A DNA stretch of 44,072 nt from an uncultured Verrucomicrobiota bacterium (GTDB lineage Bacteria > Verrucomicrobiota > Kiritimatiellia > JAAZAB01), in assembly GCA_964418925.1 (NCBI GenBank), contig CAYQNY010000002.1, positions 1-44,072 on the forward strand, written 5' to 3'. Shown piece after piece: positions 2,037-38,349 of the stretch. The translations under genes were made by a program, and so were the position numbers. The notes beneath the pieces are model-generated. The model did not search any database. It was not told the DNA's origin and worked only from the letters and a program-made list of their open reading frames with translations. The stretch's first letter is position 1. Every line of letters starts with the position of its first letter.

Positions 2037-2807
2037 ATGTTTTTCGACGGATTCATCACGGCGTTCAAGACACTCACCATTGTCCCCCTGCCGGGCAAGG
2101 AATCAGGACCGATCGCCAATTCCCTGTATTACTTCCCGCTGGTCGGAGCGTTGATCGGCGGGGTGGTGACGCTGGCAGCCTGGCTGATCGGCGATCTCCT
2201 CGCATGGACAATGGGCGCCGGTATCGTCGGCATCGTGATCGCCACCTGGATCACGGGCGGCCTGCATCTTGACGGCTTGGGCGATGTTGCTGACGCCTAT
2301 AGTCCCGGCCGGACGCGGAATCGCATGCTCGAAATCATGAAGGACCCTCACATGGGGGCCTTCGGTGTGACCGGGATTGTCTGCGTTCTGCTGGTGAAGA
2401 CCATCGCCCTGGCACACCTGGTCCAGCTGGGCCAATGGGTCTGGATTCCAATACCCTTTATCCTCTCACGGACGATCATGGTTCTGCCGGCCGTGCTACT
2501 TCCTTATGCCCGGCTGGAAGGCGGCACCGCCGAAATGTTTGTTAACAACGCCCGAGCGTCTCATTTGATTGTAGCCGGACTCCTGGCCCTGGGATGCTGC
2601 GCCCTGTTGACCGGAATCGCCGGCGGGATAATTTTTGCCTTCGCGCTCATTATAGGCTACGGATTAGTCCGCTGGATGAAGCATATTTTCGGTGGTGTGA
2701 CCGGTGACCTGTTGGGAATGTCCAATGAGATGATCGAAACTATTCTGCTTTTTGCGTTGGCGGCTGGCAGGCCGTATTTGGATGCTATCCATGCATGCAT
2801 GTTCTGA
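2037..2807 (+). CDS. cobS: adenosylcobinamide-GDP ribazoletransferase (cobalamin synthase)
   Basis: ATG at 2037, with TTG at 2031 as an alternative start. Polytopic membrane protein with 'LTIVPLP', 'YFPLVGALIGG' and 'GGLHLDGLGDVADA', characteristic of CobS. Confidence 0.9.
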   Translation: MFFDGFITAFKTLTIVPLPGKESGPIANSLYYFPLVGALIGGVVTLAAWLIGDLLAWTMGAGIVGIVIATWITGGLHLDGLGDVADAYSPGRTRNRMLEIMKDPHMGAFGVTGIVCVLLVKTIALAHLVQLGQWVWIPIPFILSRTIMVLPAVLLPYARLEGGTAEMFVNNARASHLIVAGLLALGCCALLTGIAGGIIFAFALIIGYGLVRWMKHIFGGVTGDLLGMSNEMIETILLFALAAGRPYLDAIHACMF

Positions 2808-2848
2808 CAGTCATTCATCCAGGCTCCCGATCCCAATCGATGGCAACT

Positions 2849-2900
2849 GCCGTTCTGGCGAACGGCCTGCCTTCGCTCGGATAGCTTCGGCGGGCAGGCC
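2849..2900. repeat. REP-like GC hairpins in the cobS-btuF spacer
   Basis: Hairpin 1 is 'gccgttc-tggc-gaacggc' (2849..2866). Hairpin 2 pairs 'ggcctgcc' with 'ggcaggcc' (2864..2900). The same gccgttc/gaacggc stem recurs in the element at 20566..20646. Confidence 0.45.
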
Positions 2901-2943
2901 CCTACATAATACATACCGTGAAAATAAAGAATGTAACGGTAGG

Positions 2944-3981
2944 CTGATTCCGCCCAAGGACGGACAAGCCCGCCGCTGGCGGAAATTTCTCCTGCATTGC
3001 GAATGGATACATATCGCTGGTCTGGCTTGCCTGTGCTTGCTCACGGGATGTTATCGCGCGCCGGAACCGGTTCCCGGCTCCACCGGAGACCACGCGCCAC
3101 GCGTGGTCTCCCTGGCGCCCAGTCTGACGGAAATCATCTGCGCCCTTGGCGCGGAACAACAGCTCATCGGCCGTACCAGCGCCTGCGATTATCCGCCGGA
3201 TAAGATCAAGGCTATTCCTGTGATCGGCGGATTTGGCGCGCCGTCCCTGGATCTTCTGCTGAAAATCCAACCGACGCTGGTTTTGGACGTGGATTTGCGG
3301 GATGCATCCGTGGGCAAAATGATTGATCAAATCGGTCTGCAACATCAGCGGATTGCCTGCTCAACCGTGGACGATATTCCCCGGGCCATTACCCAGGTCG
3401 GACATCTTTTGCATGCCACAGCGTCAGCCTGTGCCCTGGCCGATCCGATTTGTCGCCGTATCGTTGCTCTGCGCCGGGAAGCGGAACGCCGCCAAGCTTC
3501 CGGTCAGCCACTGCCGTCCATTTTCGTTGAAATCTGGGACAGCCCGCTGACTACGGTTGGCAAAGACTCTTTTATTTCCGACCTGATTTCCCTGGCCGGC
3601 GGCCGCAACCTCGGCGATGAAGTCGCGCATAAAGATTACTTTTCGGTTTCATCTGAATGGGTGATTGCCCGGGACCCGGACGTGATTTTATGCCTCTATA
3701 TGACCAAGAACAGAGAAACCAGAGGTTTACCCGCCGTAGCCAGGCCTGCCCAACGAAGCCTTGGCGAAGTTGGGAGCGAAGGGACGGCGAGGGCGGATTC
3801 ACAATTGACCGCGGCTTGGAGCCGGGTGGCGGCGCGAACGGGTTGGGTGGGAATCAAGGCGGTGAAAAATCATCGCGTTTACGGCGAACTGGATGATAGC
3901 GTGATCCTGCGGCCGGGTCCCCGGATTCTGGAAGGCATTGAAGCACTGCGGCAGTGCATCCTTCTGCCGGCTGGAACCTAA
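2944..3981 (+). CDS. btuF: periplasmic cobalamin/siderophore-type substrate-binding lipoprotein (BtuF-like); start codon uncertain
   Basis: PBP family motifs are present: 'RVVSLAPSLTEIICALG', 'IGRTSACDYP', 'LKIQPTLVL', 'DPDVIL', 'AVKNHRVY'. A lipobox 'LLTGC' places the Cys at 3049. There is no in-frame ATG between 2791 and the lipobox, so a non-ATG start (CTG 2944, ATT 2947 or CTG 2992) is inferred. The end coordinate is firm. Confidence 0.75.
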   Translation: MIPPKDGQARRWRKFLLHCEWIHIAGLACLCLLTGCYRAPEPVPGSTGDHAPRVVSLAPSLTEIICALGAEQQLIGRTSACDYPPDKIKAIPVIGGFGAPSLDLLLKIQPTLVLDVDLRDASVGKMIDQIGLQHQRIACSTVDDIPRAITQVGHLLHATASACALADPICRRIVALRREAERRQASGQPLPSIFVEIWDSPLTTVGKDSFISDLISLAGGRNLGDEVAHKDYFSVSSEWVIARDPDVILCLYMTKNRETRGLPAVARPAQRSLGEVGSEGTARADSQLTAAWSRVAARTGWVGIKAVKNHRVYGELDDSVILRPGPRILEGIEALRQCILLPAGT

Positions 3982-4042
3982 GAACACTTACCCCCTGCCG
4001 ACTTGTACCCAGAGGAATGCCATCGCATCCAGAAATGCCATC

Positions 4043-4067
4043 CCCCTGTCGGCTTGTCCGGCAGGGG
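4043..4067. terminator. 10-bp-stem hairpin between convergent btuF and the tandem HUH gene
   Basis: 'cccctgtcgg-cttgt-ccggcagggg', with one G-T pair. No U-tract on either side. A 14/16 direct copy of its left arm sits at 3991..4006. It could be a terminator or a subterminal IS-type hairpin. Confidence 0.3.
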
Positions 4068-4068
4068 A

Positions 4069-4980
4069 TCATGACTGTCTGGCAATACGCCGGATGACCT
4101 CCAGATTATACTCACTGAACGTCCCCGCATAATACCCGTCCTGCCATGCCCGACACCCTGCCGCCCGCGCCAGCCCGTTCTGAAACGCCAGCGCAATATC
4201 TTCCGGCGACCGCTCGATATTACCACGCAGAGCCATGTGCACATGATCCGGCATCACGGACAAGGCCACAATCCGGTGTCCGTTCTCTACAGCCACTCCC
4301 AGGGCCGCATCTCGTAACGAGCCCAGCCGCTCGGGATTCGTGATGCGAAATCGGTTGGCAACCACCAGCACTAGATGCAAATTATACCAGTACCGGCCGC
4401 TATTGGACTCCGCGGGCTCGGCCAAGAGCGTGGCATCGCGCACCACGGTAAATTGCCGCATGATCTCCCGAAAACGCGGATCGGCGAAGTCCTCCTTGCC
4501 GACCTGCCCGTGGATATAATTTCCGACTACATCGTCGGTGTTCTCGCCAAGACTGCGGAATGCCACTTTGCGGCTGAACTTAACCGGCACGTCTTTCTTC
4601 CGGAGCGCATATTGCAGTCGCCCTTTAACCCGCATGCAGAAAAACACTGGGCTGATTTGCGGCGTGACGCTGAAAAGAAGCTGAACCTTCTCTGCTGTGG
4701 CGTGGAATGTTAGCAGGTTCAGGCCGTCCGGCTTCCAAATGGGCGCGGTCGCGCGGGCAACGGCCACGGTCTGCGGCGAGAGTCGCGTGTCTTGGGTCGG
4801 CCAGCCGGTCCAGTCGTAGTGGAGGGTGTATGTAGGGTGGACGTTATGGCTGGTGTATCGCTCCGGCCGGACAAGCCGGCCGGGCGCGTTGCTCGGTGGG
4901 TCTGCTCGACCGGGTATGTTCTCCGGCGGGCTTGCCCCGCCGGGAACGAAGATTATTCTCCGACTATCACGCTTGGACAT
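4069..4980 (-). CDS. tandem (two-domain) IS200/IS605-type HUH-Y1 transposase-like protein
   Basis: Half 1 (aa ~48-160): 'YTLHYDWTGW', 'AEKVQLLFSV', 'RVKGRLQYALRK', 'FRSLGENTDDVVGNYIHGQ'. Half 2 (aa ~196-303): 'YWYNLHLVLVV', 'SVMPDHVHMALRG', 'AWQDGYYAGTFSEYNLEVIRRIARQS'. Both follow the TnpA(IS200) order of motifs. The gene lies antisense between btuF and btuC. Confidence 0.6.
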   Translation of the reverse strand: MSKRDSRRIIFVPGGASPPENIPGRADPPSNAPGRLVRPERYTSHNVHPTYTLHYDWTGWPTQDTRLSPQTVAVARATAPIWKPDGLNLLTFHATAEKVQLLFSVTPQISPVFFCMRVKGRLQYALRKKDVPVKFSRKVAFRSLGENTDDVVGNYIHGQVGKEDFADPRFREIMRQFTVVRDATLLAEPAESNSGRYWYNLHLVLVVANRFRITNPERLGSLRDAALGVAVENGHRIVALSVMPDHVHMALRGNIERSPEDIALAFQNGLARAAGCRAWQDGYYAGTFSEYNLEVIRRIARQS

Positions 4981-5200
4981 GTTTTCAGGCCTCTTGCTTG
5001 CTGCTCACCCTTTACCGCGCCGCCCATTATGCGTTCCTTCCGGCACAATATCAATGCCTCTCCCCGGCCATACCTAAGATTGAGGCAAAAGGCGCTTGAT
5101 TTATTGATTGTATATAAGGTTGATCTCACTATGCTTACTGGTGTTTGGGTGCTATTCAGGTATAAATTTCCGAAGGGAAGCTGCCTTGGGACGGCGAGGG

Positions 5201-6184
5201 ATGATGGAATTACGAATGAAACGATCCGTCATAGTGTGGTGGCTGTTCCTGCTGTCGCCCCTGGTCCTGGGCGCCTGCGTCCTGGCAGGCGCGACAGGCA
5301 TCAGCGGCTTGGACTGGCACACGGCGACGGGACGCGCGATCTTCTGGCTGAGGGTTCACCGGGTGGCCGCAGGATTCGTGATCGGAGCGGGGCTTTCCTG
5401 TTCCGGCGTCGTTCTGCAGGCGCTGTTGCGCAACCCGTTGGCCGATCCGTATATTCTGGGCGTGAGCAGTGGCGCCGGACTGGGCGCCGCCCTGGTCATC
5501 GTGTCGGGCTTTGCCGTCGCCGGCCTGCTGCCCGTCAGCGCGTTTCTCGCCGCGATCCTCACGCTGAGCGTAGTGATTCTCCTGGCGCGCAACGGTGGTG
5601 CTCCGTCGATTTACGGTCTCCTGCTCAGCGGGGTCATCGTCAGTTCGATGTGCTCGAGCATGCTGATGCTGATTATTTCCCTGGCGTCGGCGGAAGGTCT
5701 GCACAGTATTACCTGGTGGATGCTCGGGAATCTGCAGATCGTTTCCTCGTCCCTGCTGATGATCAGCGGAACGCTGATTATTCTGGGAGCGCTCGGAATC
5801 TGGGGGCTGGCCCGCAATCTCAACGCGCTGACCCTGGGCCGCGAGATGGCGCATCACCTCGGCATCCGCACGGGCGTTGCCGTTACCCTGGCCCTGGCCC
5901 TGGCTACCCTGACGACGGCCGCCTCGGTGGGGCTGGCGGGACTGATCGGTTTTGTCGGCCTGATTGTCCCGCATCTCATGCGCAGTCTGGTGGGACCTGA
6001 TCACCGCCGGCTGGTCCCCGCGGCGGCCCTCGCCGGCGGTTGGTTCCTGGCCCTGTGCGATGCGCTGGCCCGCACGGCTCTCGCCCCGGTTGAGATTCCA
6101 GTGGGTGTAATCACCGCTTTGATCGGCGGCCCCTTTTTTCTTATCCTGCTCCGGCGCCGGCGTAAACACGGGTGGGTGGAATGA
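5201..6184 (+). CDS. btuC: FecCD-family ABC permease (BtuC-like)
   Basis: ATG at 5201 follows 'ggcgaggg'. Multi-TM protein with 'LGVSSGAGLGAAL', 'TLGREMAHHLGI', 'GLIGFVGLIVPHLMR' and 'GGPFFLILLRRR'. Confidence 0.87.
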   Translation: MMELRMKRSVIVWWLFLLSPLVLGACVLAGATGISGLDWHTATGRAIFWLRVHRVAAGFVIGAGLSCSGVVLQALLRNPLADPYILGVSSGAGLGAALVIVSGFAVAGLLPVSAFLAAILTLSVVILLARNGGAPSIYGLLLSGVIVSSMCSSMLMLIISLASAEGLHSITWWMLGNLQIVSSSLLMISGTLIILGALGIWGLARNLNALTLGREMAHHLGIRTGVAVTLALALATLTTAASVGLAGLIGFVGLIVPHLMRSLVGPDHRRLVPAAALAGGWFLALCDALARTALAPVEIPVGVITALIGGPFFLILLRRRRKHGWVE

Positions 6185-7467
6185 ACCAGGCTTTTGCATT
6201 GGAACAGGTATCGGCCGGCTATCAGCGGACCCCTATTTTCCGGAATCTGCAACTGGCGGTGACTGAAGGCGAAATGGTGGCGTTGCTCGGTCCCAACGGC
6301 GCCGGCAAGTCCACCTTGTTACGCGTGCTCACCGGCCTGCTGACGCCGACGGCCGGCACTATCCGCCTGTTTGGCCAGGATGTGAATAAACTGCGCGCCG
6401 CGGAGCGCGCCCGGCTCATCGCCGTGGTGCCGCAGGAACTAAAAACCCCGATGGCCTATACCGTCGCGGAACTGGTGCTGATGGGGCGCACCGCCCTGTT
6501 GAATCCCTGGCGTCAGCCCTCTGCCGTCGATAGCCAGGTGGTGGAACGCGCCATGGTCTACACGGATGTGAGCGATCTCAGCAACCGTTCCCTGGACGCG
6601 CTCAGCGGCGGGGAAAAACAGCGGGCCGTCATTGCCATGGCCCTGGCCCAGGAACCCCGCATAATAGTGATGGACGAACCCACCACGCATCTTGATTTGA
6701 ACCACTCGCTTGAAATCATGCAAATCATCGAGCGCCTGAACCGGGAACAGGGCGTGACAGTTATGATGACCAGCCATGATCTGAACATGGCGGCCGAGTT
6801 CTGTCAGCGACTGATCCTGCTGGACCAGGGACAGGTGGTGGCCGACGGCACGCCCGAGGCCGTGCTGAAGGAGGAGATTTTGCGGGAGGTGTATCACTGC
6901 GACCTGCGCGTCCGGAAAGACACGCCAACCGGCGCGCTGTTTGTGGCGCCCGCCCGCCGCCCGCCACTGCCCCGGCCGGCGACTGCCATGCGGGTGCACG
7001 TCATTGCCGGCGGCGGCAGTGGCGGGGAGCTGCTGCGCCAACTGGCCCTGTGCGGCTATCGCGTCACTTGCGGTGTGCTGAATCAAATGGATTCCGATGC
7101 CCGGGCGGCAGAAGCCCTGGGCATGGTGCAAATCATGGAAAAACCGTTTTCTCCTATTGGCCCCGAGGCGTTGAGCCAGGCCAAACATCTGGCAACGGAC
7201 GCTGCGGCGGTCATTCTCTGTGAAGTGCCGTTTGGTCCCGGCAATCTCATCAACCTGGAAATCGCCGAGGACGCGCTCCAAAAGGGTATTCCCGTGCTGA
7301 TCAACGATCGCAACCTGGAAAAACGGGATTATACAGCAGGCCAGAACGTCGTCGCCAGGATCCGGCAGTTAATTCAATCCGGCGCCATCTGCTGGCGCCA
7401 GGGCAACGTAGCCCTCACTGCCCTGGCCCGCTTATCCGGCAGTGCCCCCCGGCAATCATCGCCATAA
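6181..7467 (+). CDS. btuD: ABC transporter ATPase (BtuD/FepC-like) fused to a ~160-aa C-terminal domain of unknown function
   Basis: ATG at 6181 overlaps the btuC stop (ATGA). Motifs: Walker A 'GPNGAGKST', signature 'LSGGEKQR', Walker B 'IIVMDEPTTHLD', H-loop 'TSHD'. After a Pro-rich linker ('RRPPLPRPA') an extra alpha/beta-looking domain starts at 'MRVHVIAGGGSGGELL' (nt 6988). Confidence 0.85.
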   Translation: MNQAFALEQVSAGYQRTPIFRNLQLAVTEGEMVALLGPNGAGKSTLLRVLTGLLTPTAGTIRLFGQDVNKLRAAERARLIAVVPQELKTPMAYTVAELVLMGRTALLNPWRQPSAVDSQVVERAMVYTDVSDLSNRSLDALSGGEKQRAVIAMALAQEPRIIVMDEPTTHLDLNHSLEIMQIIERLNREQGVTVMMTSHDLNMAAEFCQRLILLDQGQVVADGTPEAVLKEEILREVYHCDLRVRKDTPTGALFVAPARRPPLPRPATAMRVHVIAGGGSGGELLRQLALCGYRVTCGVLNQMDSDARAAEALGMVQIMEKPFSPIGPEALSQAKHLATDAAAVILCEVPFGPGNLINLEIAEDALQKGIPVLINDRNLEKRDYTAGQNVVARIRQLIQSGAICWRQGNVALTALARLSGSAPRQSSP

Positions 7468-7833: not shown

Positions 7834-8772
7834 CTACCGGAACGGCAGGACCTCATCCAACGAGCCGGCGCCGGCCAGGAGCATGACCAGCCGGTCCACG
7901 CCCAAGGCAATACCCGCCGCGGGCGGCATCCCTGCCTCCAGGGCGGCAAGAAAATCCTCATCCAGCGGATAGACCGGTTGGCCCAGCGCCCGGCGCTCGG
8001 CGGCGCAGGCTTCGAACCGCGCGCGCTGTTCCACCGGATCGGTCAGCTCGCTGAACGCGTTGGCCAGCTCCAGGCCGTCGATATAGAGTTCCCAGCGTTC
8101 GGCTACCTGAGGATTGTCCGGCTTGCGGCGGGCCAGGGCAGCAGCGGCCGCCGGGTAATCCATCAGCACCACCGGATGCTCCAGCGCAAGGCGCGGCTCA
8201 ACCTTGTTGACCAGGTCCAAATCGAATCGTTCGGCATCGAACGCCGTCACCGGATCCCATCCGGCCAAGGAGGTAAACGCTTCCGCCACCGTAAATATAT
8301 CCCAGACCGGCATTAACTCCACCTGCGCGCGCCGTATTTTTCCGCCAGGGGCGGATCCGCTCAGGCTTGACAGCCACGTTCGCCCGATGGCGGCCTCGGC
8401 CACCGCGGCGATCAGAGCCTTGGCATCCGCCAGCATCGTCAGGTAATCGGCGTTGGCACGATACCATTCCAGCAGGGTGAATTCCGGATGATGCCGGTCG
8501 CCCCGCTCGTGCTGACGAAAACAAGGTCCTATCTGAAACACGCGTTCACAGCCAGCCGCCAGCAGACGCTTCATGTGCAGTTCGGGCGACGTCCGGAGAT
8601 AGGCGTCACCGGCCGGGATGGCGTCAATATGCAGTTCCATGGCTGGCGCCGGAATGCACACCGGGGTCTCGATTTCCAGGAAATCACGATCGTAAAAAAA
8701 CCGGCGGATGGCCCGCAGAATGGCGGCGCGGAGCTCTAATACCGGCTTGAAAGTTGTCAGGGGCATGGGCAT
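7834..8772 (-). CDS. epmA: elongation factor P--(R)-beta-lysine ligase (PoxA/GenX, truncated LysRS paralogue)
   Basis: 312 aa. Class-II aaRS core without an anticodon-binding domain: 'FLEIETP', 'YLRTSPELHMKRLLAAG', 'FQIGPCFRQHERGDRHHPEFTLLEWY', 'GIALGVDRLVML'. Confidence 0.8.
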   Translation of the reverse strand: MPMPLTTFKPVLELRAAILRAIRRFFYDRDFLEIETPVCIPAPAMELHIDAIPAGDAYLRTSPELHMKRLLAAGCERVFQIGPCFRQHERGDRHHPEFTLLEWYRANADYLTMLADAKALIAAVAEAAIGRTWLSSLSGSAPGGKIRRAQVELMPVWDIFTVAEAFTSLAGWDPVTAFDAERFDLDLVNKVEPRLALEHPVVLMDYPAAAAALARRKPDNPQVAERWELYIDGLELANAFSELTDPVEQRARFEACAAERRALGQPVYPLDEDFLAALEAGMPPAAGIALGVDRLVMLLAGAGSLDEVLPFR

Positions 8773-9108
8773 AAATTACGGATTAACATCCGGCAATCTC
8801 GCTTAACGTAGCCTGCGGCCACAACGAAAACTTTTACCCGCGAAACCCGCGCAATAACATTACAATAAAGCATGGAACAATGGCATTTTTGCCCGCACTT
8901 TCGCGCCGGTCCCGCCATAACCCTGAGCGACGGCGGATGTTTCGTGGGCTGAATTCCGCTTTACAGGTTAGCTCCTAAGACTTTAATTGTTTGGGTTCAT
9001 GCCTGATGCAGACCCGCCTCTGGCGGGAAAGGAGTCAAACAAATCCGACTGAGTATTGCAAGCTATACGTGTTGCGGGTGTTCGGTGTTCAGTTACATTG
9101 AGCGTCGC

Positions 9109-9837
9109 TCAATTTTTCGGCGGATGGTCTGCCACCAGCTGGTTGACATACGTAAGCGATGCAAAGGTGCCGGCGTCACTCCACCAGCCTTTCATCATGT
9201 CGAATTTCATTGCACCCAGGCGGATATAGGTGTTGTTGACATCGGTGATTTCCAATTCGCCGCGGCCGCTGGGCTTGCAGGTTCGGATGATATCAAAGAC
9301 CCGGGCATCATAGAAATAAATACCGGTCACGGCGATACGTGATTTCGGATGGGCCGGTTTTTCCTCAATGGACACCACCCGGTCGCCCGCTACTTCGGCC
9401 ACGCCAAAGCGCTCCGGATCGCTGACCTCTTTGCCCACAATACGGGCGCCCTGTTCCTGGGCCCGGAAGGCGTCGGCATAAGGTTGCAGCGGATCCTCAA
9501 AGATATTGTCGCCGAGAATGACGGCCACGGGATCACTATGGCAGAAATTTTCAGCCATGCTCAGCGCCTGGGCAATGCCTCCGGCCTCATCCTGGACCTT
9601 GTACGTGAACCGGCATCCGAATTCACGCCCTGATCCAAGCAGATTCACCATGTCGCCCATGTGATCGGTGCCGGTAACCACGAGAATTTCATCAATCCCG
9701 GCGCCGGTCAATTTGGCGATCGGATGAAAAATCATCGGTTTCTGCCCGATGGGCAGTAAATGCTTATTGGTGACCTTGGTCAGCGGCATCAGCCGCGACC
9801 CGGTTCCACCGGCGAGAACTATGCCTTTCAAATTCAT
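9109..9837 (-). CDS. sugar-phosphate nucleotidyltransferase (short RmlA/glucose-1-phosphate thymidylyltransferase-like)
   Basis: Start taken at 'MNLKGIVLAGGTGSRLMPLT' (ATG at 9837); the signature G-x-G-T-R-L loop sits at the N-terminus. 'EKPAHPKSRIAVTGIYFYD' and 'GELEITDV' are typical. The upstream 45 codons of the track ORF look non-coding. Confidence 0.8.
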   Translation of the reverse strand: MNLKGIVLAGGTGSRLMPLTKVTNKHLLPIGQKPMIFHPIAKLTGAGIDEILVVTGTDHMGDMVNLLGSGREFGCRFTYKVQDEAGGIAQALSMAENFCHSDPVAVILGDNIFEDPLQPYADAFRAQEQGARIVGKEVSDPERFGVAEVAGDRVVSIEEKPAHPKSRIAVTGIYFYDARVFDIIRTCKPSGRGELEITDVNNTYIRLGAMKFDMMKGWWSDAGTFASLTYVNQLVADHPPKN

Positions 9838-9959
9838 AAGCCGATATTGTAAACCAACCGAAAAGCAAAAGGAATATTTTTTTTCTGAATTTTCCCTTGA
9901 CTCCTGCGGGGCATCATGAAACACTGCCTGCCATATTTGTTCCTTGAGAATTCGAGTAT

Positions 9960-10135
9960 GTGTGGAAGGCAAACGGAAGTCTGTGAAAAACAGACGCGGT
10001 TGCGCCGCTGTAACCGGATGCCACTTGCTTCAAAGCAAGTGGCGTGCAAAAACTCACTAGCCACTGATCGCGGATGCGGTCGGGAAGGCAAGCGAGCAGG
10101 ATGGAATCCGGGAGCCAGAAGACGTTGCCCTTCGC
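9960..10135 (+). promoter_or_regulatory. cobalamin (B12) riboswitch aptamer
   Basis: Core 'GGAAGUCUGUGAAAAACAGACGCGGUUGCGCCGCUGUAACC' matches the conserved GGGAA..GGUGAAA..GC.G..CGCCACUGUAA core. 'GCCACUG....GGGAAGGC' is present. A B12-box-like 'AGCCAGAAGACGUUGCC' lies at 10113..10129. Situated upstream of B12-uptake genes. Confidence 0.8.
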
Positions 10136-10208
10136 ACTCATCGCGAAAATGCCGGGTGGCATTTTCACTCTTTCGCCGGTAAGGAGGATGAGGGGTCCGT
10201 ATTGTATT

Positions 10209-10257
10209 CAAAGCCTTCAGGTTCCTTGGGTGGGAGTCTGAAGGCTTTTTTGTTTTG
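10209..10257 (+). terminator. intrinsic terminator (riboswitch expression platform)
   Basis: Stem 'aaagccttcag' pairs with 'ctgaaggcttt' and is followed by 'tttttgtttt'. A 9-bp hairpin 'gaaaatgcc-gggt-ggcattttc' at 10145..10166 lies between the B12 box and this terminator. Confidence 0.75.
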
Positions 10258-10284
10258 TATAAACGGCTATACGGGCATGTTCGT

Positions 10285-10623
10285 ATGCTCAAAATTCTTA
10301 TATTCGGTTGCCTTTCCATAAGCATTTGTTCGCGTGTTCTCGCAGAGGCCGCAGTTCCCGGACGAATTGTATGCCTTGCGCCCAGCTATACTGAAACTCT
10401 GATTGAACTGGGATTACAAGACAAGATCGTGGGCGTGGTGACTTCTTCCGATTATCTGGAGGAAGTAAAGCACGCGGAACGGGTTGGCTTGTGGATCAAG
10501 CCCAATATTGAAAAAATTATTGCGCTTAAACCGGATATTGTCCTCGCCACCGCCTTGGCTGGGCAACAATCCATCGTCAAGACCGACCGTGTCCACGACG
10601 ACATAGGCGCTGAATCTGTTTAG
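10285..10623 (+). pseudogene. N-terminal fragment (~112 aa) of a BtuF-like periplasmic binding protein
   Basis: A signal-like 'MLKILIFGCLSISICSRVLA' is followed by 'RIVCLAPSYTETLIELG', 'KIVGV' and 'LKPDIVLA'. The ORF ends after about 120 aa, whereas the paralogue in this window (2944..3981) is ~345 aa. A 17-bp imperfect hairpin at 10624..10659 follows the stop. Confidence 0.55.
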
Positions 10624-10696: not shown

Positions 10697-12607
10697 ATGA
10701 AACTGAGAATGCCAATAATGACGGTGGCGATTAGTATTATGATGGTATTAGTAGTTTTACAAAACAATTCAGCGGAAGAGTCAAATGCGGTGAAAGAGGA
10801 ATCCAAACCGTCCGCGCCGGTTGTCACGCAGGCGGTTTCCGAAGCCGACACCATTGTTGTGACCGCGACCAGAATTCCTCAATCCATCCGGGATGTCGGC
10901 GTAAGCGTTTCGGTGGTCTCGAGAGAAAGAATTGAAGAGTTGAACGCGCAAAACGTTGGCGAGGTTTTGAAGGAAGTCACCGACGCGCGAGTGAAGAGTT
11001 ATGGCTCCATGGGAGCGGGGAGTGATATAACCCTGCGCGGTTCCACCGCCAAGCAGGTCCTGGTTATGGTGGATGGCAGGCCGGTTAATCTTTCCTCCCT
11101 GGGGATGGCCGATCTTTCCATGTACCCGGTTGATCAGATTGAAAGGATAGAGGTAATCAGGGGACCGGCCTCCGTTCTTTACGGCGCCGGCGCCATGGCC
11201 GGAGTAGTCAATATTATCACCCGCGACCCGCCGGAAAAACTTCAGACGGATTTGTCGGCCTCGTATGGCACTAAAAATACGCGCATTATTCAATTGGATA
11301 ACGGGGCACGAATAGGCGATCTCGGCTACCTGATCACGGCCAGTCAGAATGCATCCGACGGATGGAGAGAAAACAGCGCTTGCGACGGCTATCATGTTTT
11401 CGGGAAGTTGGATTATGATATGACTCAGGAATCGCGGCTAACGCTGAACTCAGGATTTTCGCGGCAGAACAAGGGCGTTCCCGGTTCCACCAGCTGGCAG
11501 ACGCCCAATGCCAAGCAGTATGACCGGCAGTACTGGGTTGACCTCACCCATAAATACGAGTTTGAAACAAAAACATGGCTCACCAGCAAGGCTTTCCTGA
11601 ATCAAAACTGGCAGGAATATAAGGACCCGGACAGTTTTACCGACGACATCAGCCGGAACCAGAAAGCGGGATTGGATATCCAGCAGACTTTGCCGTTGGG
11701 CGAAAAACAGTTACTTCTGGGAGGAATTTACCTTGAAAATGATTATGTGAACATTAAAGACGCCCAAGATGTTTCCCGGATCGGGGGCAATCGCGATCTC
11801 TTCACCGGCGCGGTTTTCCTGCAGGACGAAATCTCGTTTCTGGAACGGTTTATCGTGACGCCCGGACTGCGCTGCGATATTCAGTCAAAGTGGGGGGCCG
11901 AACTCAGTCCAAAGATCAGCGGCCTTTACAAGATTACGGATATAACCAGACTGAAAGCCTCGATCGGCCGCGGATTCAGGGCGCCGACGGTTGACGATCT
12001 CTACTGGCGGGATGACTATTCCGAGGGGAACCCGGATTTAAAGCCGGAGGAATCCTTCAGTTACGATGCCGGAATTCAACAACAGTTGGGAGAGAAAAGC
12101 ATGTTGCAGATCTCCCTGTTCCAAAGCCATATGAAAAACCTGATCGCCTGGTTTGATGACGGTACAGGCATATACAAGGCACAAAATGTCAACGATGCCT
12201 TCCTGCAGGGTGTGGAAATGGAGTTTACCGCGCAACTCACTACAGGAATCTCCGGCGCTGTGAATTACACGCTGCTTGACGCGCAGGACACAAGCGGCGC
12301 CTATGAGGACAAGACCCTGACTTACCGGCCGAAGAACCAAGTGGGATGCCGGTTGGGATATCAAAGCACCTGGGGGTTGAAATTGAATGTGAATGCCGAG
12401 TACACCGATTCGGTTTACATTGACCGGGACAATACGAAAGAATTGGGCGGCTTTATGACCCTGGGTGCCTACGCGGAACAAATCGTAGTCAAGGATGTGA
12501 AGATTTTTGCCCGCGGTGACAATCTTCTTGATAAGCAATATCAGCTGATCAACGGCTATCCCATGCCGGGCTTAAGCGTTATGGGCGGCGTAAAGGCAAC
12601 GTTTTAA
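10697..12607 (+). CDS. btuB: TonB-dependent outer-membrane receptor (BtuB-like)
   Basis: Signal peptide present. TonB box 'DTIVVTATR'. Plug motifs 'VSVVSRERIEE' and 'ITLRGSTAKQVLVMVDGRPVN'. C-terminal '...GGVKATF' ends in an aromatic residue. 636 aa. Lies directly downstream of the B12 riboswitch. Confidence 0.88.
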   Translation: MKLRMPIMTVAISIMMVLVVLQNNSAEESNAVKEESKPSAPVVTQAVSEADTIVVTATRIPQSIRDVGVSVSVVSRERIEELNAQNVGEVLKEVTDARVKSYGSMGAGSDITLRGSTAKQVLVMVDGRPVNLSSLGMADLSMYPVDQIERIEVIRGPASVLYGAGAMAGVVNIITRDPPEKLQTDLSASYGTKNTRIIQLDNGARIGDLGYLITASQNASDGWRENSACDGYHVFGKLDYDMTQESRLTLNSGFSRQNKGVPGSTSWQTPNAKQYDRQYWVDLTHKYEFETKTWLTSKAFLNQNWQEYKDPDSFTDDISRNQKAGLDIQQTLPLGEKQLLLGGIYLENDYVNIKDAQDVSRIGGNRDLFTGAVFLQDEISFLERFIVTPGLRCDIQSKWGAELSPKISGLYKITDITRLKASIGRGFRAPTVDDLYWRDDYSEGNPDLKPEESFSYDAGIQQQLGEKSMLQISLFQSHMKNLIAWFDDGTGIYKAQNVNDAFLQGVEMEFTAQLTTGISGAVNYTLLDAQDTSGAYEDKTLTYRPKNQVGCRLGYQSTWGLKLNVNAEYTDSVYIDRDNTKELGGFMTLGAYAEQIVVKDVKIFARGDNLLDKQYQLINGYPMPGLSVMGGVKATF

Positions 12608-12801
12608 TGACAATGGAAATGAAGAACAGGTTGGCGCGTTGGACCGTGGAGGAATTTGTGCTGTTGGGAAGGATTCCATATTATGGAAGGTTCCGATTCC
12701 TCGAAACAAAAAATGACCTGCAAATCGCCCGCGACGTGCTGGCAATTTCAGAAGCAGCGTGGGAAAACAGCGGCCGGCTTACTGTCCCCATCAATTCTTA
12801 A
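12607..12801 (+). pseudogene. internal fragment of a BtuD/FepC-type ABC ATPase
   Basis: 'WTVEEFVLLGRIPYYGRFRFLETKNDLQIARDVL' corresponds to the segment between Walker A and the signature motif of iron/B12 ABC ATPases. Walker A, signature and Walker B are all absent. Confidence 0.45.
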
Positions 12802-12861
12802 AAAGTGATATGAAGCGCATAGCCGAGTTGGTAAAATCAGCATAACGGAAGGATTACAGGA

Positions 12862-13557
12862 ATGACCGGTAAAGCCAATCCGGTGCCACAGAAAAATACC
12901 CGTTTTTTCAGTTCGTGGAGCGGCGGCAAAGACTCGTGTCTCGCGTTGCACCGCGCCTTCACGGCCGGCGCAAAGCCGGCATATCTGCTGACCATCCTCG
13001 GCGAGGATGGAATACGGTCCAGATCGCATGGTTTGAGAAGAGATGTTCTGGAAGCGCAGGCATCGGCCATGGGAATACCTTTGCTCATCAGGTGTGCCGC
13101 CTGGGCGGAATATGAATCCGTCTTTGTTGATGCGTTGCATGCAATCCGTAAAGAAGGTGTCAAATCGGGGGTATTCGGGGACATTGATTTTCTACCCCAT
13201 CTGGAATGGGATAAAAACGTGTGCGCGCAAGCCAACATGACCCCGTACCTGCCGCTGTGGGAATGCGCCCGACTGGAGCTACTGCATGAATTTCTGTCGC
13301 TCGGTTATCAAGCCGTGATTGTGAGCGTGAAGGAGGACAAGCTGGGCAAGGAATTCCTCGGCAGAACTATCGACCGGGAAGTTGTCAATGAATTCCAGAA
13401 AACAGGGATCGATCCGTGCGGGGAAAACGGCGAGTATCATACCCTGGTCGTGGATGGCCCGCTATTTGCCAAAGGTATTGAAATCCTGGAAAGTGAACCC
13501 GTGTTGAGAGAAGGCTTCTGGAAATCCTGGGTGCTGGATATCAAACACTACCGATAA
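12862..13557 (+). CDS. DUF71/COG2102 PP-loop ATP pyrophosphatase (Dph6/MJ0570-like), B12-cluster-associated
   Basis: PP-loop 'SWSGGKDS' near the N-terminus. 'GVFGDID', 'PLW' and 'CGENGEYHTLVVDGPLF' follow the family layout. 231 aa. RBS 'aagga' upstream. Confidence 0.8.
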   Translation: MTGKANPVPQKNTRFFSSWSGGKDSCLALHRAFTAGAKPAYLLTILGEDGIRSRSHGLRRDVLEAQASAMGIPLLIRCAAWAEYESVFVDALHAIRKEGVKSGVFGDIDFLPHLEWDKNVCAQANMTPYLPLWECARLELLHEFLSLGYQAVIVSVKEDKLGKEFLGRTIDREVVNEFQKTGIDPCGENGEYHTLVVDGPLFAKGIEILESEPVLREGFWKSWVLDIKHYR

Positions 13558-13634
13558 GATGAAAACGTTGACCGGATATTGATCTTCAGCCTGAATATCC
13601 TGTAAATTATCGCGGGTAAAGATAAGGATTGGTT

Positions 13635-15227
13635 ATGACACCGAGCACGATTTCTCATGCGCCCCCCGGTAATCCGGTTGTCAGGAACACAGGCCATTTA
13701 CGGCCGGCCGGCCGGAAGACACCAGCCATCATGGTCGTGGGGACCATGTCCAACTCCGGCAAGAGTGTTGTAACCGCCGCGCTCTGCCGTTATTTCACGC
13801 AAAAAGGTTATCATCCCGCGCCGTTCAAGGCCCAGAATATGTCGCTTAACTCGTTTGTCACCCGGGAAGGCGGTGAAATGGGCCGGGCTCAGGTTGTCCA
13901 GGCTCAGGCGGCCGGCATTGAGCCCCATACCGACATGAACCCGGTCCTGCTCAAACCCATGGGTGAATCCGGATGTCAAGTCATCCTGAATGGCCGGTCT
14001 ATTGGCAATGTGCCAGCCCGGGATTATTACGCTATGAAAGTCCGCATGCAGACCGCCGCGCAGGAAGCCTATGACCGCCTCGCGGCCCGGCATGACCTGA
14101 TCATCCTGGAGGGCGCGGGCAGTCCGGCCGAAATTAATCTGCAGGCCGAGGACTTTGTCAACATGGCCATGGCGGAATATGCCGGCGCGGCCGCGCTGCT
14201 GGTGGCCGATATTGACCGCGGCGGCGTGTTTGCCGGCATCTACGGAACTGTTTCCCTGCTGCCTGAAAAACACCGCCGGCTGGTCGCCGGCATCATCATC
14301 AATAAGTTCCGGGGGGATAAATCCCTGCTTGATCCCGGGTTGCGTCAGATTGAACACCTGACCGGAATTCCGGTGCTGGGCGTGTTGCCGTATATCCAAA
14401 ACCTGGCCATTGACGACGAGGATTCCCTGGGACTCAATACGCGTCAACATGGTAAAGGAACTATCCTCGACATCGTCGTGATTCGCCTGCCGAGAATCAG
14501 CAATTTCACCGACTTCCTGCCATTGGAAAATACTCCCGGCCTACGGGTTCGATATATCAGCGCGGTCCGCGACCTGGGTACTCCGGATCTGATCATCATT
14601 CCCGGCACCAAAAACACCCGGGGCGACTTGCGTTTTTTGACCGGCAACGGCTGGGCCGCTGCCCTGCAAAAGGCCACGCACCGCTCGATTCCCATTTTCG
14701 GAATCTGTGGCGGCTACCAGATGCTGGGAAAGTGCGTCACGGATCCCACCGGTATTGAAGGCGTCAAGGGAGCCGAGCCCGGACTAAATCTTCTGCCCCT
14801 GACAACCGTGCTTGAAGATAAAAAACAACTGGCACAGGTTGCGGGACAAACAACCGTGGACCTTCCTTTTGCCGTAGCCGGCACCCCCTTTGACGGCTAC
14901 GAAATCCATGCCGGCCGCACAACCGCGACGGCTCCCATCCGACACCCGCTGGTGATCACGCAACGTCTGGCGGAAAGAACTAATGATTCTGAAGGCGCCA
15001 TTGCCGACAATGGACTCATCTTCGGATGCTATATTCACGGTCTGTTTGACAATAACAGCCTGCGAACCCAATTGATCAGCTGGCTATGTGAACGCAAGGG
15101 ATTATCCTGGCAAACGGCTCCACACCAAAATACCAGCGGTGAGGCCGTCGACCGCCTGGTGGCCTTGCTCGAACAACACATCGCCATGAAACCCATTGAT
15201 CGCTTAGTCAAATTAAATCATTGCTAG
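13635..15227 (+). CDS. cobQ: cobyric acid synthase
   Basis: ATG at 13635 follows 'aaggat'. Motifs: 'VVGTMSNSGKS', 'FKAQNMSLNS', 'MNPVLLKP'. The C-terminal GATase domain has 'GICGGYQMLG' and 'YIHGLF'. Confidence 0.92.
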   Translation: MTPSTISHAPPGNPVVRNTGHLRPAGRKTPAIMVVGTMSNSGKSVVTAALCRYFTQKGYHPAPFKAQNMSLNSFVTREGGEMGRAQVVQAQAAGIEPHTDMNPVLLKPMGESGCQVILNGRSIGNVPARDYYAMKVRMQTAAQEAYDRLAARHDLIILEGAGSPAEINLQAEDFVNMAMAEYAGAAALLVADIDRGGVFAGIYGTVSLLPEKHRRLVAGIIINKFRGDKSLLDPGLRQIEHLTGIPVLGVLPYIQNLAIDDEDSLGLNTRQHGKGTILDIVVIRLPRISNFTDFLPLENTPGLRVRYISAVRDLGTPDLIIIPGTKNTRGDLRFLTGNGWAAALQKATHRSIPIFGICGGYQMLGKCVTDPTGIEGVKGAEPGLNLLPLTTVLEDKKQLAQVAGQTTVDLPFAVAGTPFDGYEIHAGRTTATAPIRHPLVITQRLAERTNDSEGAIADNGLIFGCYIHGLFDNNSLRTQLISWLCERKGLSWQTAPHQNTSGEAVDRLVALLEQHIAMKPIDRLVKLNHC

Positions 15228-15310: not shown

Positions 15311-15976
15311 ATGTGTGCTCATTTTCAAAACCGCCCATCAGTCCACGGATTTTTCCAGAAGTTCATGGCTTCTCTGCTGCTGCATGGAAGCATCCTGTTC
15401 TGCATGGCCTGCCTGTGGTCCGGCCATGCGACCACGATGATTCCCGTGTTTCAGTCGGGCGAATTCTCCCTGGAGTTGGGACTGGCTTACCTGCCGCCGG
15501 CGTCCGTCACGGCCAAGTCCGCGCCCCTGCCCGTTGATCCCCCGGTTGAAGACGTCGCAAAAGACCCGGAGGAAACCGCAACACCTATCGAGGACACGGC
15601 CGAGGAGCAAGAACCCGACAGCCTGCAACTTGCCTCCATTAGGCACCCGCCGCCGGCTCCAATCATCGCTCCGTCGATTGCCGGCACGGCAACCCCGGGC
15701 ATACCCAACGCGCCTCAGATGAAATCCCGGATCCGCCCGATCTATCCGCCGGGGGCACGGTTACGGGGCGAAGAAGGCAGTGTCACCGTGCGCGCCACCG
15801 TAAACTCTTCAGGAAAAACCCAATCCGCTGAAGTGCTTCGCTCCAGCGGGTTCCCGGCCCTGGATAAGGCGGCGGTCAACGCTGTGCGCCGGGCGCGGTT
15901 CATCCCAGCCCAAAAGGATCGGCTGGCTGTCAAATCCCAGACCATCCTGGCATTTCGTTTCACGCTCGTGGACTGA
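15311..15976 (+). CDS. tonB: energy transducer TonB
   Basis: TM helix with an S-x3-H motif ('ASLLLHGS'). Pro/Glu-rich spacer. C-terminal TonB domain 'RPIYPPGARLRGEEGSVTVRATVNSSGK...VLRSSGFPALDKAAVNAVRRARF'. The start could instead be ATG at 15365. Confidence 0.8.
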   Translation: MCAHFQNRPSVHGFFQKFMASLLLHGSILFCMACLWSGHATTMIPVFQSGEFSLELGLAYLPPASVTAKSAPLPVDPPVEDVAKDPEETATPIEDTAEEQEPDSLQLASIRHPPPAPIIAPSIAGTATPGIPNAPQMKSRIRPIYPPGARLRGEEGSVTVRATVNSSGKTQSAEVLRSSGFPALDKAAVNAVRRARFIPAQKDRLAVKSQTILAFRFTLVD

Positions 15977-19092: not shown

Positions 19093-19174
19093 GCTCCCGT
19101 GGCGGAATTGGCAGACGCGCATGGCTTAGGACCATGTCTCTCACGAGGTGAAGGTTCGAGTCCTTTCGGGAGCA
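19093..19174 (+). tRNA. tRNA-Leu (anticodon UAG)
   Basis: 82 nt. Acceptor GCTCCCG pairs with CGGGAGC. D-arm 'GGCGGAATTGGCAGACGCG', as in bacterial tRNA-Leu. Anticodon stem CATGG/CCATG with loop CTTAGGA. Long variable arm. T-arm GAAGG-TTCGAGT-CCTTT. Discriminator A. The CCA end is not fully encoded (CCT follows). Confidence 0.9.
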
Positions 19175-37847: not shown

Positions 37848-38349
37848 GAATTTTCCCCGAAAAAAGAATACCCCACCCGGTCGTGACGGTTCCCGTTTCT
37901 GTTCCGATTGAACAACGTGGGTGCTCTAACCAATGGGTTCCAAGTCCCTGAACGGGCATAAGGGTGCCATTGGGGTTCGAGCTCCCTATCAGACTTATTA
38001 ATGGGTCAGAAAATAGGCCCGAAACCACGCGCCAGGCAGGGTATTCAGAGAGTGCAAAATGAAATTCAACGAGGGAAAATCATTTCGACCAAATGTTGTG
38101 AAAGAACAATTACGATTCCTTGTAGAAATTTATTGCCGCCAACCTGTGACCGTCAGCCAACCATACCTCATCACGGCAATGACAGCGTATCGTCAATCGC
38201 TGATCGGCGTTCACCCGGACCTGAGCCGGGAGGTAATGACAACCACAAACCGCTAAACCATCAAACACAGACATGTCATCCATGCCTGAAAAGAATCGCA
38301 ATTGCAACAACTTAAGACCGAACTCAATGAATTTCATTATCGTCCCTGA

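Follow-up and report, generated by a model that had tools for sequence, protein, structure and literature searches.

The protein considered here shares its PF01902 fold with two described groups. Dph6, the diphthine–ammonia ligase (EC 6.3.1.14; the archaeal PH1257, structure 2D13, and PF0828, structure 3RK1; yeast Dph6), converts diphthine, ATP and NH3 to diphthamide, AMP and pyrophosphate (PPi). The DUF71-B12 subgroup (e.g. Pyrococcus furiosus PF0295) was published in 2012 together with its link to vitamin B12, which was drawn from comparative genomics (Biol Direct 7:32, PMC3541065): in its members ENGE[F/Y]H replaces the Dph6 motif EGGE/DxE188, and of 102 genes 75 cluster with btuCDF and 18 with cbiB. 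Here we analyze a DUF71-B12 gene (positions 12862-13557, + strand; 231 aa plus stop) on a 44,072-nucleotide stretch of DNA, hereafter the window, from an uncultured Verrucomicrobiota bacterium of the Kiritimatiellia (contig CAYQNY010000002.1 of assembly GCA_964418925.1, positions 1 to 44,072). The locus adds no family. What is new are deletions that have spared btuB and DUF71, the lack of an association with CobQ, the presence of DUF71-B12 in genomes without CbiB, and the set of fusion partners.

Two further groups of enzymes resemble the protein in role or in proposed reaction. CbiZ (an adenosylcobinamide/pseudo-B12 amidohydrolase) and CbiR (the cobamide phosphodiesterase of Akkermansia muciniphila) are accessory salvage enzymes of salvagers, often encoded beside, or fused with, corrinoid transport components. 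However, both are ATP-independent hydrolases without sequence or fold kinship to DUF71, and DUF71-B12 co-occurs with CbiZ, and with CbiR-like genes, in some genomes. CobQ/CbiP and CbiA/CobB carry out the ATP-dependent amidation of corrin carboxylates, the reaction type that we propose below for DUF71, but they do so with a MinD/ParA-type P-loop fold joined to a GATase, depend on glutamine, and proceed via a phosphoryl rather than an adenylyl intermediate.

Family membership is unambiguous: the open reading frame (ORF) matches PF01902 (Diphthami_syn_2) over profile positions 6-217 of 219 (E 1.6e-43, 149 bits), and a Pfam search of the protein returned no other family, CbiZ (PF01955) included. 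The PP-loop SWSGGKDS (residues 18-25) is intact, and the segment CGENGEYHTLVVDGPLF (residues 186-202) holds GENGEYHT (187-194) and, within it, ENGEYH (188-193), the published DUF71-B12 signature. The protein lacks Glu188 of the Dph6 motif EGGE/DxE, the equivalent position being His. Its best NCBIfam match is TIGR03679 (archaeal Dph6), at 107.1 bits well under the equivalog cut-off of 197.3. Conservation was read from an alignment of 80 homologues (41-74% identity). Invariant or near-invariant there are the PP-loop, H56, Y84/E85, F105-G-D-I-D109, H113, W116, W133 and G187-E-x-G-E-x-H193, with H193 invariant; the PP-loop, H56 and T194 are conserved across the 80. The window protein has all 17 of the 17 invariant residues and every near-invariant one. 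The ATP site is conserved.

A quick maximum-likelihood tree with a small outgroup assigns the protein to a 48-row clade in which 47 rows have the His-type motif; a branch with 98% SH-aLRT splits this clade from the copies of Dph6 type that three archaeal genomes carry. Each of the three has two PF01902 genes, one of the Dph6 kind and the other with E[NKT]GE[YF]H; the Dph6-kind copy reads EGGEYE in locus L096, while our regular expression gave no motif for those of L097 and L098. Inside the His-type clade the window protein falls in a well-supported Verrucomicrobiota/Kiritimatiellae-type group. A search of its own genome for Dph2 (PF01866) found no match, with controls matching in four archaea, and a diphthamide role is excluded because the genome has no Dph2. 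The label 'diphthine--ammonia ligase' that public records attach to close homologues is a misnomer for these bacterial proteins and a routine mis-annotation.

The AlphaFold model (pLDDT 96.7) is close to no solved structures but the Dph6-type PH1257 and PF0828 (TM 0.82-0.88, 25-27% identity); there appears to be no solved structure of any DUF71-B12 member. Besides the fold and PP-loop, the protein presumably shares adenylation chemistry with Dph6. Unlike Dph6, it has another conserved set, W19, GDID 106-109, H113, W116 and W133, in place of the residues that contact EF-2. Judging from the secondary-structure string of the model, D107, D109, H113, W116 and H193 would lie at the C-terminal ends of strands. 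The ratio of nonsynonymous to synonymous substitution rates (dN/dS) is 0.23-0.27 against four kin, the gene is under purifying selection, and other samples have yielded a 99%-identical protein (P0002). At the DNA level, the final 25 or so codons (window 13474-13557) cannot be aligned with kin; this end forms a different C-terminal strand and has a 3-residue insertion shared with P0075, and the model is still confident there. By its sequence the window gene is an intact, functional member of the DUF71-B12 subgroup, predicted to encode a PP-loop ATP pyrophosphatase. It is like the published members in the SGGKDS and ENGE[F/Y]H motifs, in clustering with btu transport genes and cbiB, and in belonging to a bacterium without diphthamide and a genome without CbiZ. 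Nothing essential sets it apart; the window differs in that the operon is degraded and cobQ and tonB have been brought downstream.

The locus runs riboswitch-btuF'-btuB-btuD'-DUF71-cobQ-tonB, with all elements on the + strand and primes marking remnants:

9946-10146, + strand: cobalamin riboswitch aptamer RF00174 (cmscan 56.4 bits against a gathering threshold of 31.5, E 1.7e-11, full match to model positions 1-189)
10210-10248, + strand: intrinsic terminator of the riboswitch expression platform, a 17-pair stem followed by the T-run TTTGTTTTGT (from a consensus scan only)
10255-10623, + strand: btuF remnant, the N-terminal third (122 codons; Pfam Peripla_BP_2 positions 1-65 of 235)
10697-12607, + strand: intact BtuB-type TonB-dependent corrinoid receptor (Plug and TonB_dep_Rec_b-barrel domains)
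12608-12802, + strand: 64-codon ORF of deletion remnants, in which the ancestral btuB/btuC TAATG junction is joined to mid-btuD
12640-12756, + strand: btuD remnant (tblastn: residues 96-134 of the 277-aa BtuD of kin locus L085, 74% identity)
12862-13557, + strand: DUF71-B12 PP-loop ATP pyrophosphatase gene
13629-15227, + strand: CobQ/CbiP cobyric acid synthase (NF001989 626 bits, TIGR00313 524 bits)
15311-15976, + strand: TonB (TonB_C E 4e-20)

The btuF remnant corresponds to residues 5-105 of the 293-aa BtuF of L085 (69% identity by tblastn). The intact BtuB is 82% identical to that of L085 over 635 aa, with a dN/dS of 0.13, and its best NCBIfam model is TIGR01779 (TonB-B12; 237 bits, below the equivalog cut-off). 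The terminator scan found no convincing terminator between btuB, DUF71 and cobQ. DUF71 would be co-transcribed with btuB from the cobalamin riboswitch and, because of this, made when B12 is scarce. Regulation by B12 is as plain a feature of the gene as its ATP site: an upstream riboswitch is present in the window and in six kin or other loci. No separate riboswitch precedes the cobQ-tonB pair of the window, which would need read-through from btuB-DUF71 or an unrecognized promoter.

What has happened to this operon is seen from kin loci on metagenomic contigs and contigs of metagenome-assembled genomes (MAGs), whose DUF71 proteins are 68-77% identical to that of the window. Their intact operon is riboswitch-btuF-AF_1314_C (221 aa)-btuB-btuC-btuD-DUF71, with the convergent genes cbiB-cobD (or a cobD::cobQ fusion)-tonB on its 3' side; homologous riboswitches stand 5' of the operon in L082, L084, L085, L089 and L090. 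By blastn the window is collinear with L085 save for three deletions. The first (L085 4635-6193) took away AF_1314_C together with two-thirds of btuF (its 3' part) and the beginning of the btuB leader. With the second (8109-9398) went btuC and codons 1-95 of btuD, and with the third (9492-9982) the remainder of btuD. Spared were btuB and DUF71, the latter with its start and the upstream 18 nucleotides, collinear with L085, that make up the ribosome-binding region. Since btuB and DUF71 alone were spared, the enzyme seems to have been worth keeping without its cognate BtuFCD. A second, intact btuFCD set elsewhere in the window, described below, probably made the deleted importer redundant.

A different reading of the same losses is that DUF71 is itself a relic, the last survivor of a decaying operon, or else is directed at a carboxylate other than a corrinoid. 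The disappearance of btuF, AF_1314_C, btuC and btuD would fit, as would the last 25 or so residues of the protein, which differ from those of kin. We regard this reading as improbable: every invariant and near-invariant residue is kept at a dN/dS of about 0.25, a protein 99% identical has been recorded from other samples, neither the gene nor its ribosome-binding region is touched by the deletions, which spare them exactly, and the link to the riboswitch is kept in every kin variant.

The preliminary description of this DNA had reported a 231-aa ORF with SWSGGKDS and the DUF71/COG2102 fold, which the translation and the PF01902 match bear out. Its assignment to a B12-associated subgroup agrees with the motif, the tree and the riboswitch and uptake context. 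It also had the gene order on one strand right, as judged by domain matches and RF00174, and its marks of truncation on btuF and an ATPase gene were justified, both being deletion remnants.

The arrangement of the kin genes varies, and linkage to uptake genes is established throughout: kin DUF71 is always tied to such genes, as btuF-btuB-btuC-btuD-DUF71, tonB-DUF71 or DUF71-btuFCD. Two genomes of the family to which the window's own genome belongs have riboswitch-tonB-DUF71 with a separate riboswitch-btuB (G178) and riboswitch-btuF-btuB-btuC-btuD::DUF71 (G187). The btuD::DUF71 fusion of G187 is 530 aa long (ABC_tran plus PF01902; L090:7932-9698, - strand; P0122). Constant across the kin variants are the riboswitch and the link to uptake proteins; cobQ is not constant.

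Some kin have a second cobalamin riboswitch, which drives tonB-cobDQ-cbiB in L085 (15250-15447, - strand) and btuB alone in L089 (12995-13267, - strand). The AF_1314_C gene (PF27252) lies between btuF and btuB at L082:5227-5895, L084:5462-6127 and L085:5400-6065; its product begins with a VIGGGxxG of Rossmann-like type, and its match to NAD_binding_7 is no more than weak. By tblastn the gene is absent from the window and from the whole of its own genome.

Can the neighboring cobQ tell us what DUF71 does? The own genome (G000; 3.38 Mb in 311 contigs, 92% complete) has CobQ, CbiB and CobD (both on contig C1), CobU, CobT and CobS, and at least eight ORFs with a B12-binding domain; within its 92% we found no CbiZ (PF01955), no CbiA/CobB over cut-off and no CbiC. 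It is thus a corrinoid salvager with an 'orphan' CobQ. This invites the idea that DUF71 is a partner of CobQ and a substitute for CbiA, amidating side chains a and c, which CobQ does not serve, so that the two together rebuild cobyric acid from salvaged corrinoids of the cobyrinic acid level. In its favor, DUF71 is adjacent to and co-oriented with cobQ in a genome where CobQ is present and CbiA and CbiC were not found, a few further loci (L002, L003, L023 and L078) also have cobQ beside DUF71, and 18 of 50 DUF71-B12 genomes from many phyla, a set reached via loci on longer contigs, have CobQ and no CbiA.

The phylum speaks otherwise. In a sample of 251 genomes CobQ is present in 58, CbiA in 37 and DUF71 in 10; with DUF71 so rare, and several of the ten fragmentary, the comparison is only descriptive. 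CobQ is no more frequent with DUF71 (2/10) than without it (56/241). Twenty of the 21 genomes with CobQ and without CbiA lack a full DUF71, the exception being G000, and the nearest kin, G178 and G187, have DUF71 and no CobQ; orphan CobQ is therefore common in salvagers of the phylum independently of DUF71. Outside it, 22 of the 50 DUF71-B12 genomes have no CobQ. Nor is the window cobQ orthologous to that of kin in position or sequence: it is 43% identical to the kin cobD::cobQ and differently arranged. For Akkermansia muciniphila an orphan cobDQ-cbiB is documented with no mention of DUF71 (10.1101/2020.09.02.280537). We thus consider a partnership with CobQ very unlikely. The adjacency of DUF71 and cobQ is a local accident, and cobQ is no conserved partner. 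The usual form of CobQ in the phylum sample is an open frame of the cobD::cobQ type of about 860-920 aa, as in L085. With 21 of the 58 CobQ-positive genomes lacking CbiA, an orphan CobQ is widespread among corrinoid salvagers.

The preliminary description had derived re-amidation of corrinoids from the adjacency to CobQ, an argument that fails, as the link is not kept in kin and 20 of the 21 CobQ-positive, CbiA-negative genomes lack DUF71. The neighborhood it had drawn, btuB-DUF71-cobQ, is conserved for the tie of DUF71 to btuB, tonB or btuFCD and not for that to cobQ. It was correct that a B12 role had been predicted, in 2012 (PMC3541065), and our literature search, like the description, found no biochemistry; it left out that the role put forward in 2012 resembles that of CbiZ and is not amidation.

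That hypothesis (de Crecy-Lagard et al. 2012) sees DUF71-B12 as a replacement of CbiZ that initiates the remodeling of cobamides or cobinamide: the amide of the f side chain would be broken, possibly via ATP-dependent O-adenylation, yielding cobyric acid that CbiB re-extends. Several observations agree with it. The own genome has no CbiZ and does have cbiB and cobD; in L082, L084 and L085 cbiB and cobD directly adjoin the DUF71 operon; 46 of the 50 DUF71-B12 genomes lack CbiZ; and an anticorrelation between DUF71-B12 and CbiZ in bacteria was reported in the 2012 paper (PMC3541065). The anticorrelation is not strict, as four of the 50 genomes have both. More damaging are the genomes without CbiB. 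In the set of 50, CobS is found in 45, CobQ in 28, CbiB in about 28 (strong matches), CbiA in 10, CbiC in 8 and CbiZ in 4; CobQ and CbiB travel together, with both in 25 genomes and neither in about 19. CbiB is missing from roughly 19-22 of the 50, and since cobyric acid would be a dead end there, a CbiZ-like role is not universal.

The clearest case is that of five Omnitrophota genomes with btuFCD-cobC-cobU-cobT-cobS-DUF71-btuB, searches of which gave no match to CbiB, CobQ, CbiA, CbiC or CbiZ and, for CobD, none above the curated cut-off. Where DUF71-B12 occurs in genomes capable only of loop assembly, its reaction must suit cobinamide or complete cobamides without re-entry at cobyric acid. 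In addition, genes of the CbiR superfamily (AP_endonuc_2, xylose-isomerase-like TIM barrel), another kind of remodeling initiator, lie beside or near DUF71 in L062 (10717-11490), L002, L014 and L036, and hydrolysis by a ligase fold is unusual, as a reviewer of the 2012 paper remarked (PMC3541065). On balance we find the replacement of CbiZ unlikely as the general function.

A variant that keeps the ligase chemistry is activation of the f carboxylate, with DUF71 adenylating cobyric acid and so helping or replacing CbiB in attaching the aminopropanol-phosphate linker. The chemistry, carboxylate plus amine, would be the same, and cbiB adjoins DUF71 in kin and in 18 of the 102 loci of PMC3541065. 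However, the Omnitrophota without CbiB are also without CobD over the curated cut-off and would make no linker, and CbiB and DUF71 are both present in 28 of the 50 genomes. To our knowledge, de novo producers as a rule do without DUF71. This variant strikes us as highly improbable.

Two side observations come from the same set. The CbiA homologue of the Nitrospiraceae MAG G271 (the genome of L027; C8:357381-358719) is split in two, has two in-frame TGA codons and probably represents a pseudogene. Gene sizes in three only partly annotated Halanaerobiales loci (L004, L013 and L017) had suggested a DUF71 inside a de novo cbi operon; we dropped this idea, the genes being mainly membrane and unknown ones plus cobA/btuR.

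Which substrate, then, is suggested by the family at large? Fusions join His-type DUF71 with BtuD, with a BtuF-like Peripla_BP_2 domain (two clusters, of 31 and 25 sequences) and with CobT (DBI_PRT, 28 members); fusion clusters were seen as P0129, P0132, P0133, P0134 and P0135. In the BtuF-like fusions Peripla_BP_2 is C-terminal and hence has no N-terminal signal peptide, and this arrangement is the best in silico hint of a corrinoid substrate. Rarer partners are Aminotran_5, GNAT, NUDIX and methyltransferase domains. For the reading of DUF71 as an enzyme of some other carboxylate, the rarer partners can be cited, together with the many His-type genes of other phyla that stand alone without riboswitch or B12 neighbors; the BtuF-like, BtuD and CobT fusions speak against it.

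In a census of neighborhoods, a recognizable corrinoid gene was found near His-type DUF71 in 34 of 67 loci. The census used single-linkage clusters and home-made hidden Markov models (HMMs), which merged BtuF with BtuB and labeled CobD as CobQ (through the cobD::cobQ fusion of L085), and its neighbor counts are rough lower bounds. In Planctomycetota and Bacteroidota loci without other recognizable B12 genes, genes for DUF6580 adjoin DUF71 (L042:392-973, L066, L077:10744-11340 and L079); DUF6580 is possibly an unrecognized transporter partner.

Taken together, context and domain fusions point to a corrinoid substrate, and the Dph6 reaction, by analogy, to amide formation. In the mechanism we propose, ATP would adenylate a carboxyl group with release of PPi, as in Dph6, and an amine would displace AMP to give an amide. 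The substrate would be an imported corrinoid, and the reaction the ammonia-dependent re-amidation of a deamidated corrin side chain, i.e. cofactor repair, by which damaged or incomplete scavenged corrinoids would be made usable. We favor re-amidation because it is sensible in every background seen: de novo producers, salvagers with CobQ and CbiB, and salvagers with loop assembly only. That DUF71-B12 re-amidates a deamidated side chain on cobinamide or a complete cobamide is our tentative choice, held at somewhat under an even chance; the more specific formulation, an ATP- and ammonia-dependent repair ligase that acts on imported cobinamide or cobamides independently of CobQ/CbiA and of CbiZ/CbiB, is rather doubtful. 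Which side chain is the target is speculative.

A sulfur-transfer mechanism with a sacrificial Cys, to which distant fold matches to LarE and NcsA and the Aminotran_5 (class-V pyridoxal-phosphate enzyme) fusion of Peptostreptococcus had drawn our attention, we rejected as a general one: many His-type proteins, the Aminotran_5 fusions included, have Ala, Ser, Ile or Thr at the only near-invariant Cys26, and Cys186 is variable.

Several points weigh against re-amidation. Our literature search found no biochemical study of any DUF71-B12 protein, and with the catalytic Glu188 of Dph6 replaced by His the chemistry may differ from a simple amidation. We saw no glutaminase partner or fusion for DUF71-B12. 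For repair to be selected, deamidated corrinoids would have to be sufficiently common in nature. In 33 of the 67 His-type loci no recognizable corrinoid gene is nearby, a fraction that the insensitive HMMs overstate, and eight context-free loci have unrelated neighbors and no riboswitch directly upstream of the stand-alone DUF71; the His-type clade may not be monofunctional. Finally, the absences across phyla rest on MAGs of unknown completeness with CobS as the only control, although incompleteness alone is an unlikely cause of the missing CbiB because CobS was detected in 90% of the genomes.

The remaining annotated features of the window include further corrinoid genes on the contig:

2-475, + strand: cobU (Pfam CobU), its 5' part cut by the contig end
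841-1971, + strand: cobT (Pfam DBI_PRT)
2031-2807, + strand: cobS (Pfam CobS)
2752-7467, + strand: second, intact importer of the btuF-btuC-btuD type (Peripla_BP_2, FecCD, ABC_tran)
19093-19174, + strand: tRNA gene (gathering threshold)
37866-38045, - strand: 6S RNA gene (gathering threshold)

The genes cobU, cobT and cobS serve nucleotide-loop assembly. The second importer set is 30-43% identical to the BtuFCD of kin and is interrupted by an antisense IS200-like gene (4069-4980). Its BtuD (431 aa) has a C-terminal extension of about 180 aa (window 6922-7467) with a Gly-rich Rossmann-like motif at the start; a BLASTP comparison of this extension with the AF_1314_C protein gave E 0.059, which lends no support to a relationship.

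Among the enzymes of vitamin B12 scavenging whose reaction is unsolved, DUF71-B12 is one of the more widespread. The genomes that have it without CbiB, CobD, CobQ and CbiZ argue against the only published functional hypothesis as its universal role and narrow the reaction to one on cobinamide or complete cobamides. If DUF71-B12 is indeed a repair ligase, it would be a new and widespread step of corrinoid salvage, one that would explain why DUF71 travels with BtuB, BtuFCD and TonB even where only attachment of the lower ligand is possible, and it would alter models of corrinoid availability in microbial communities.

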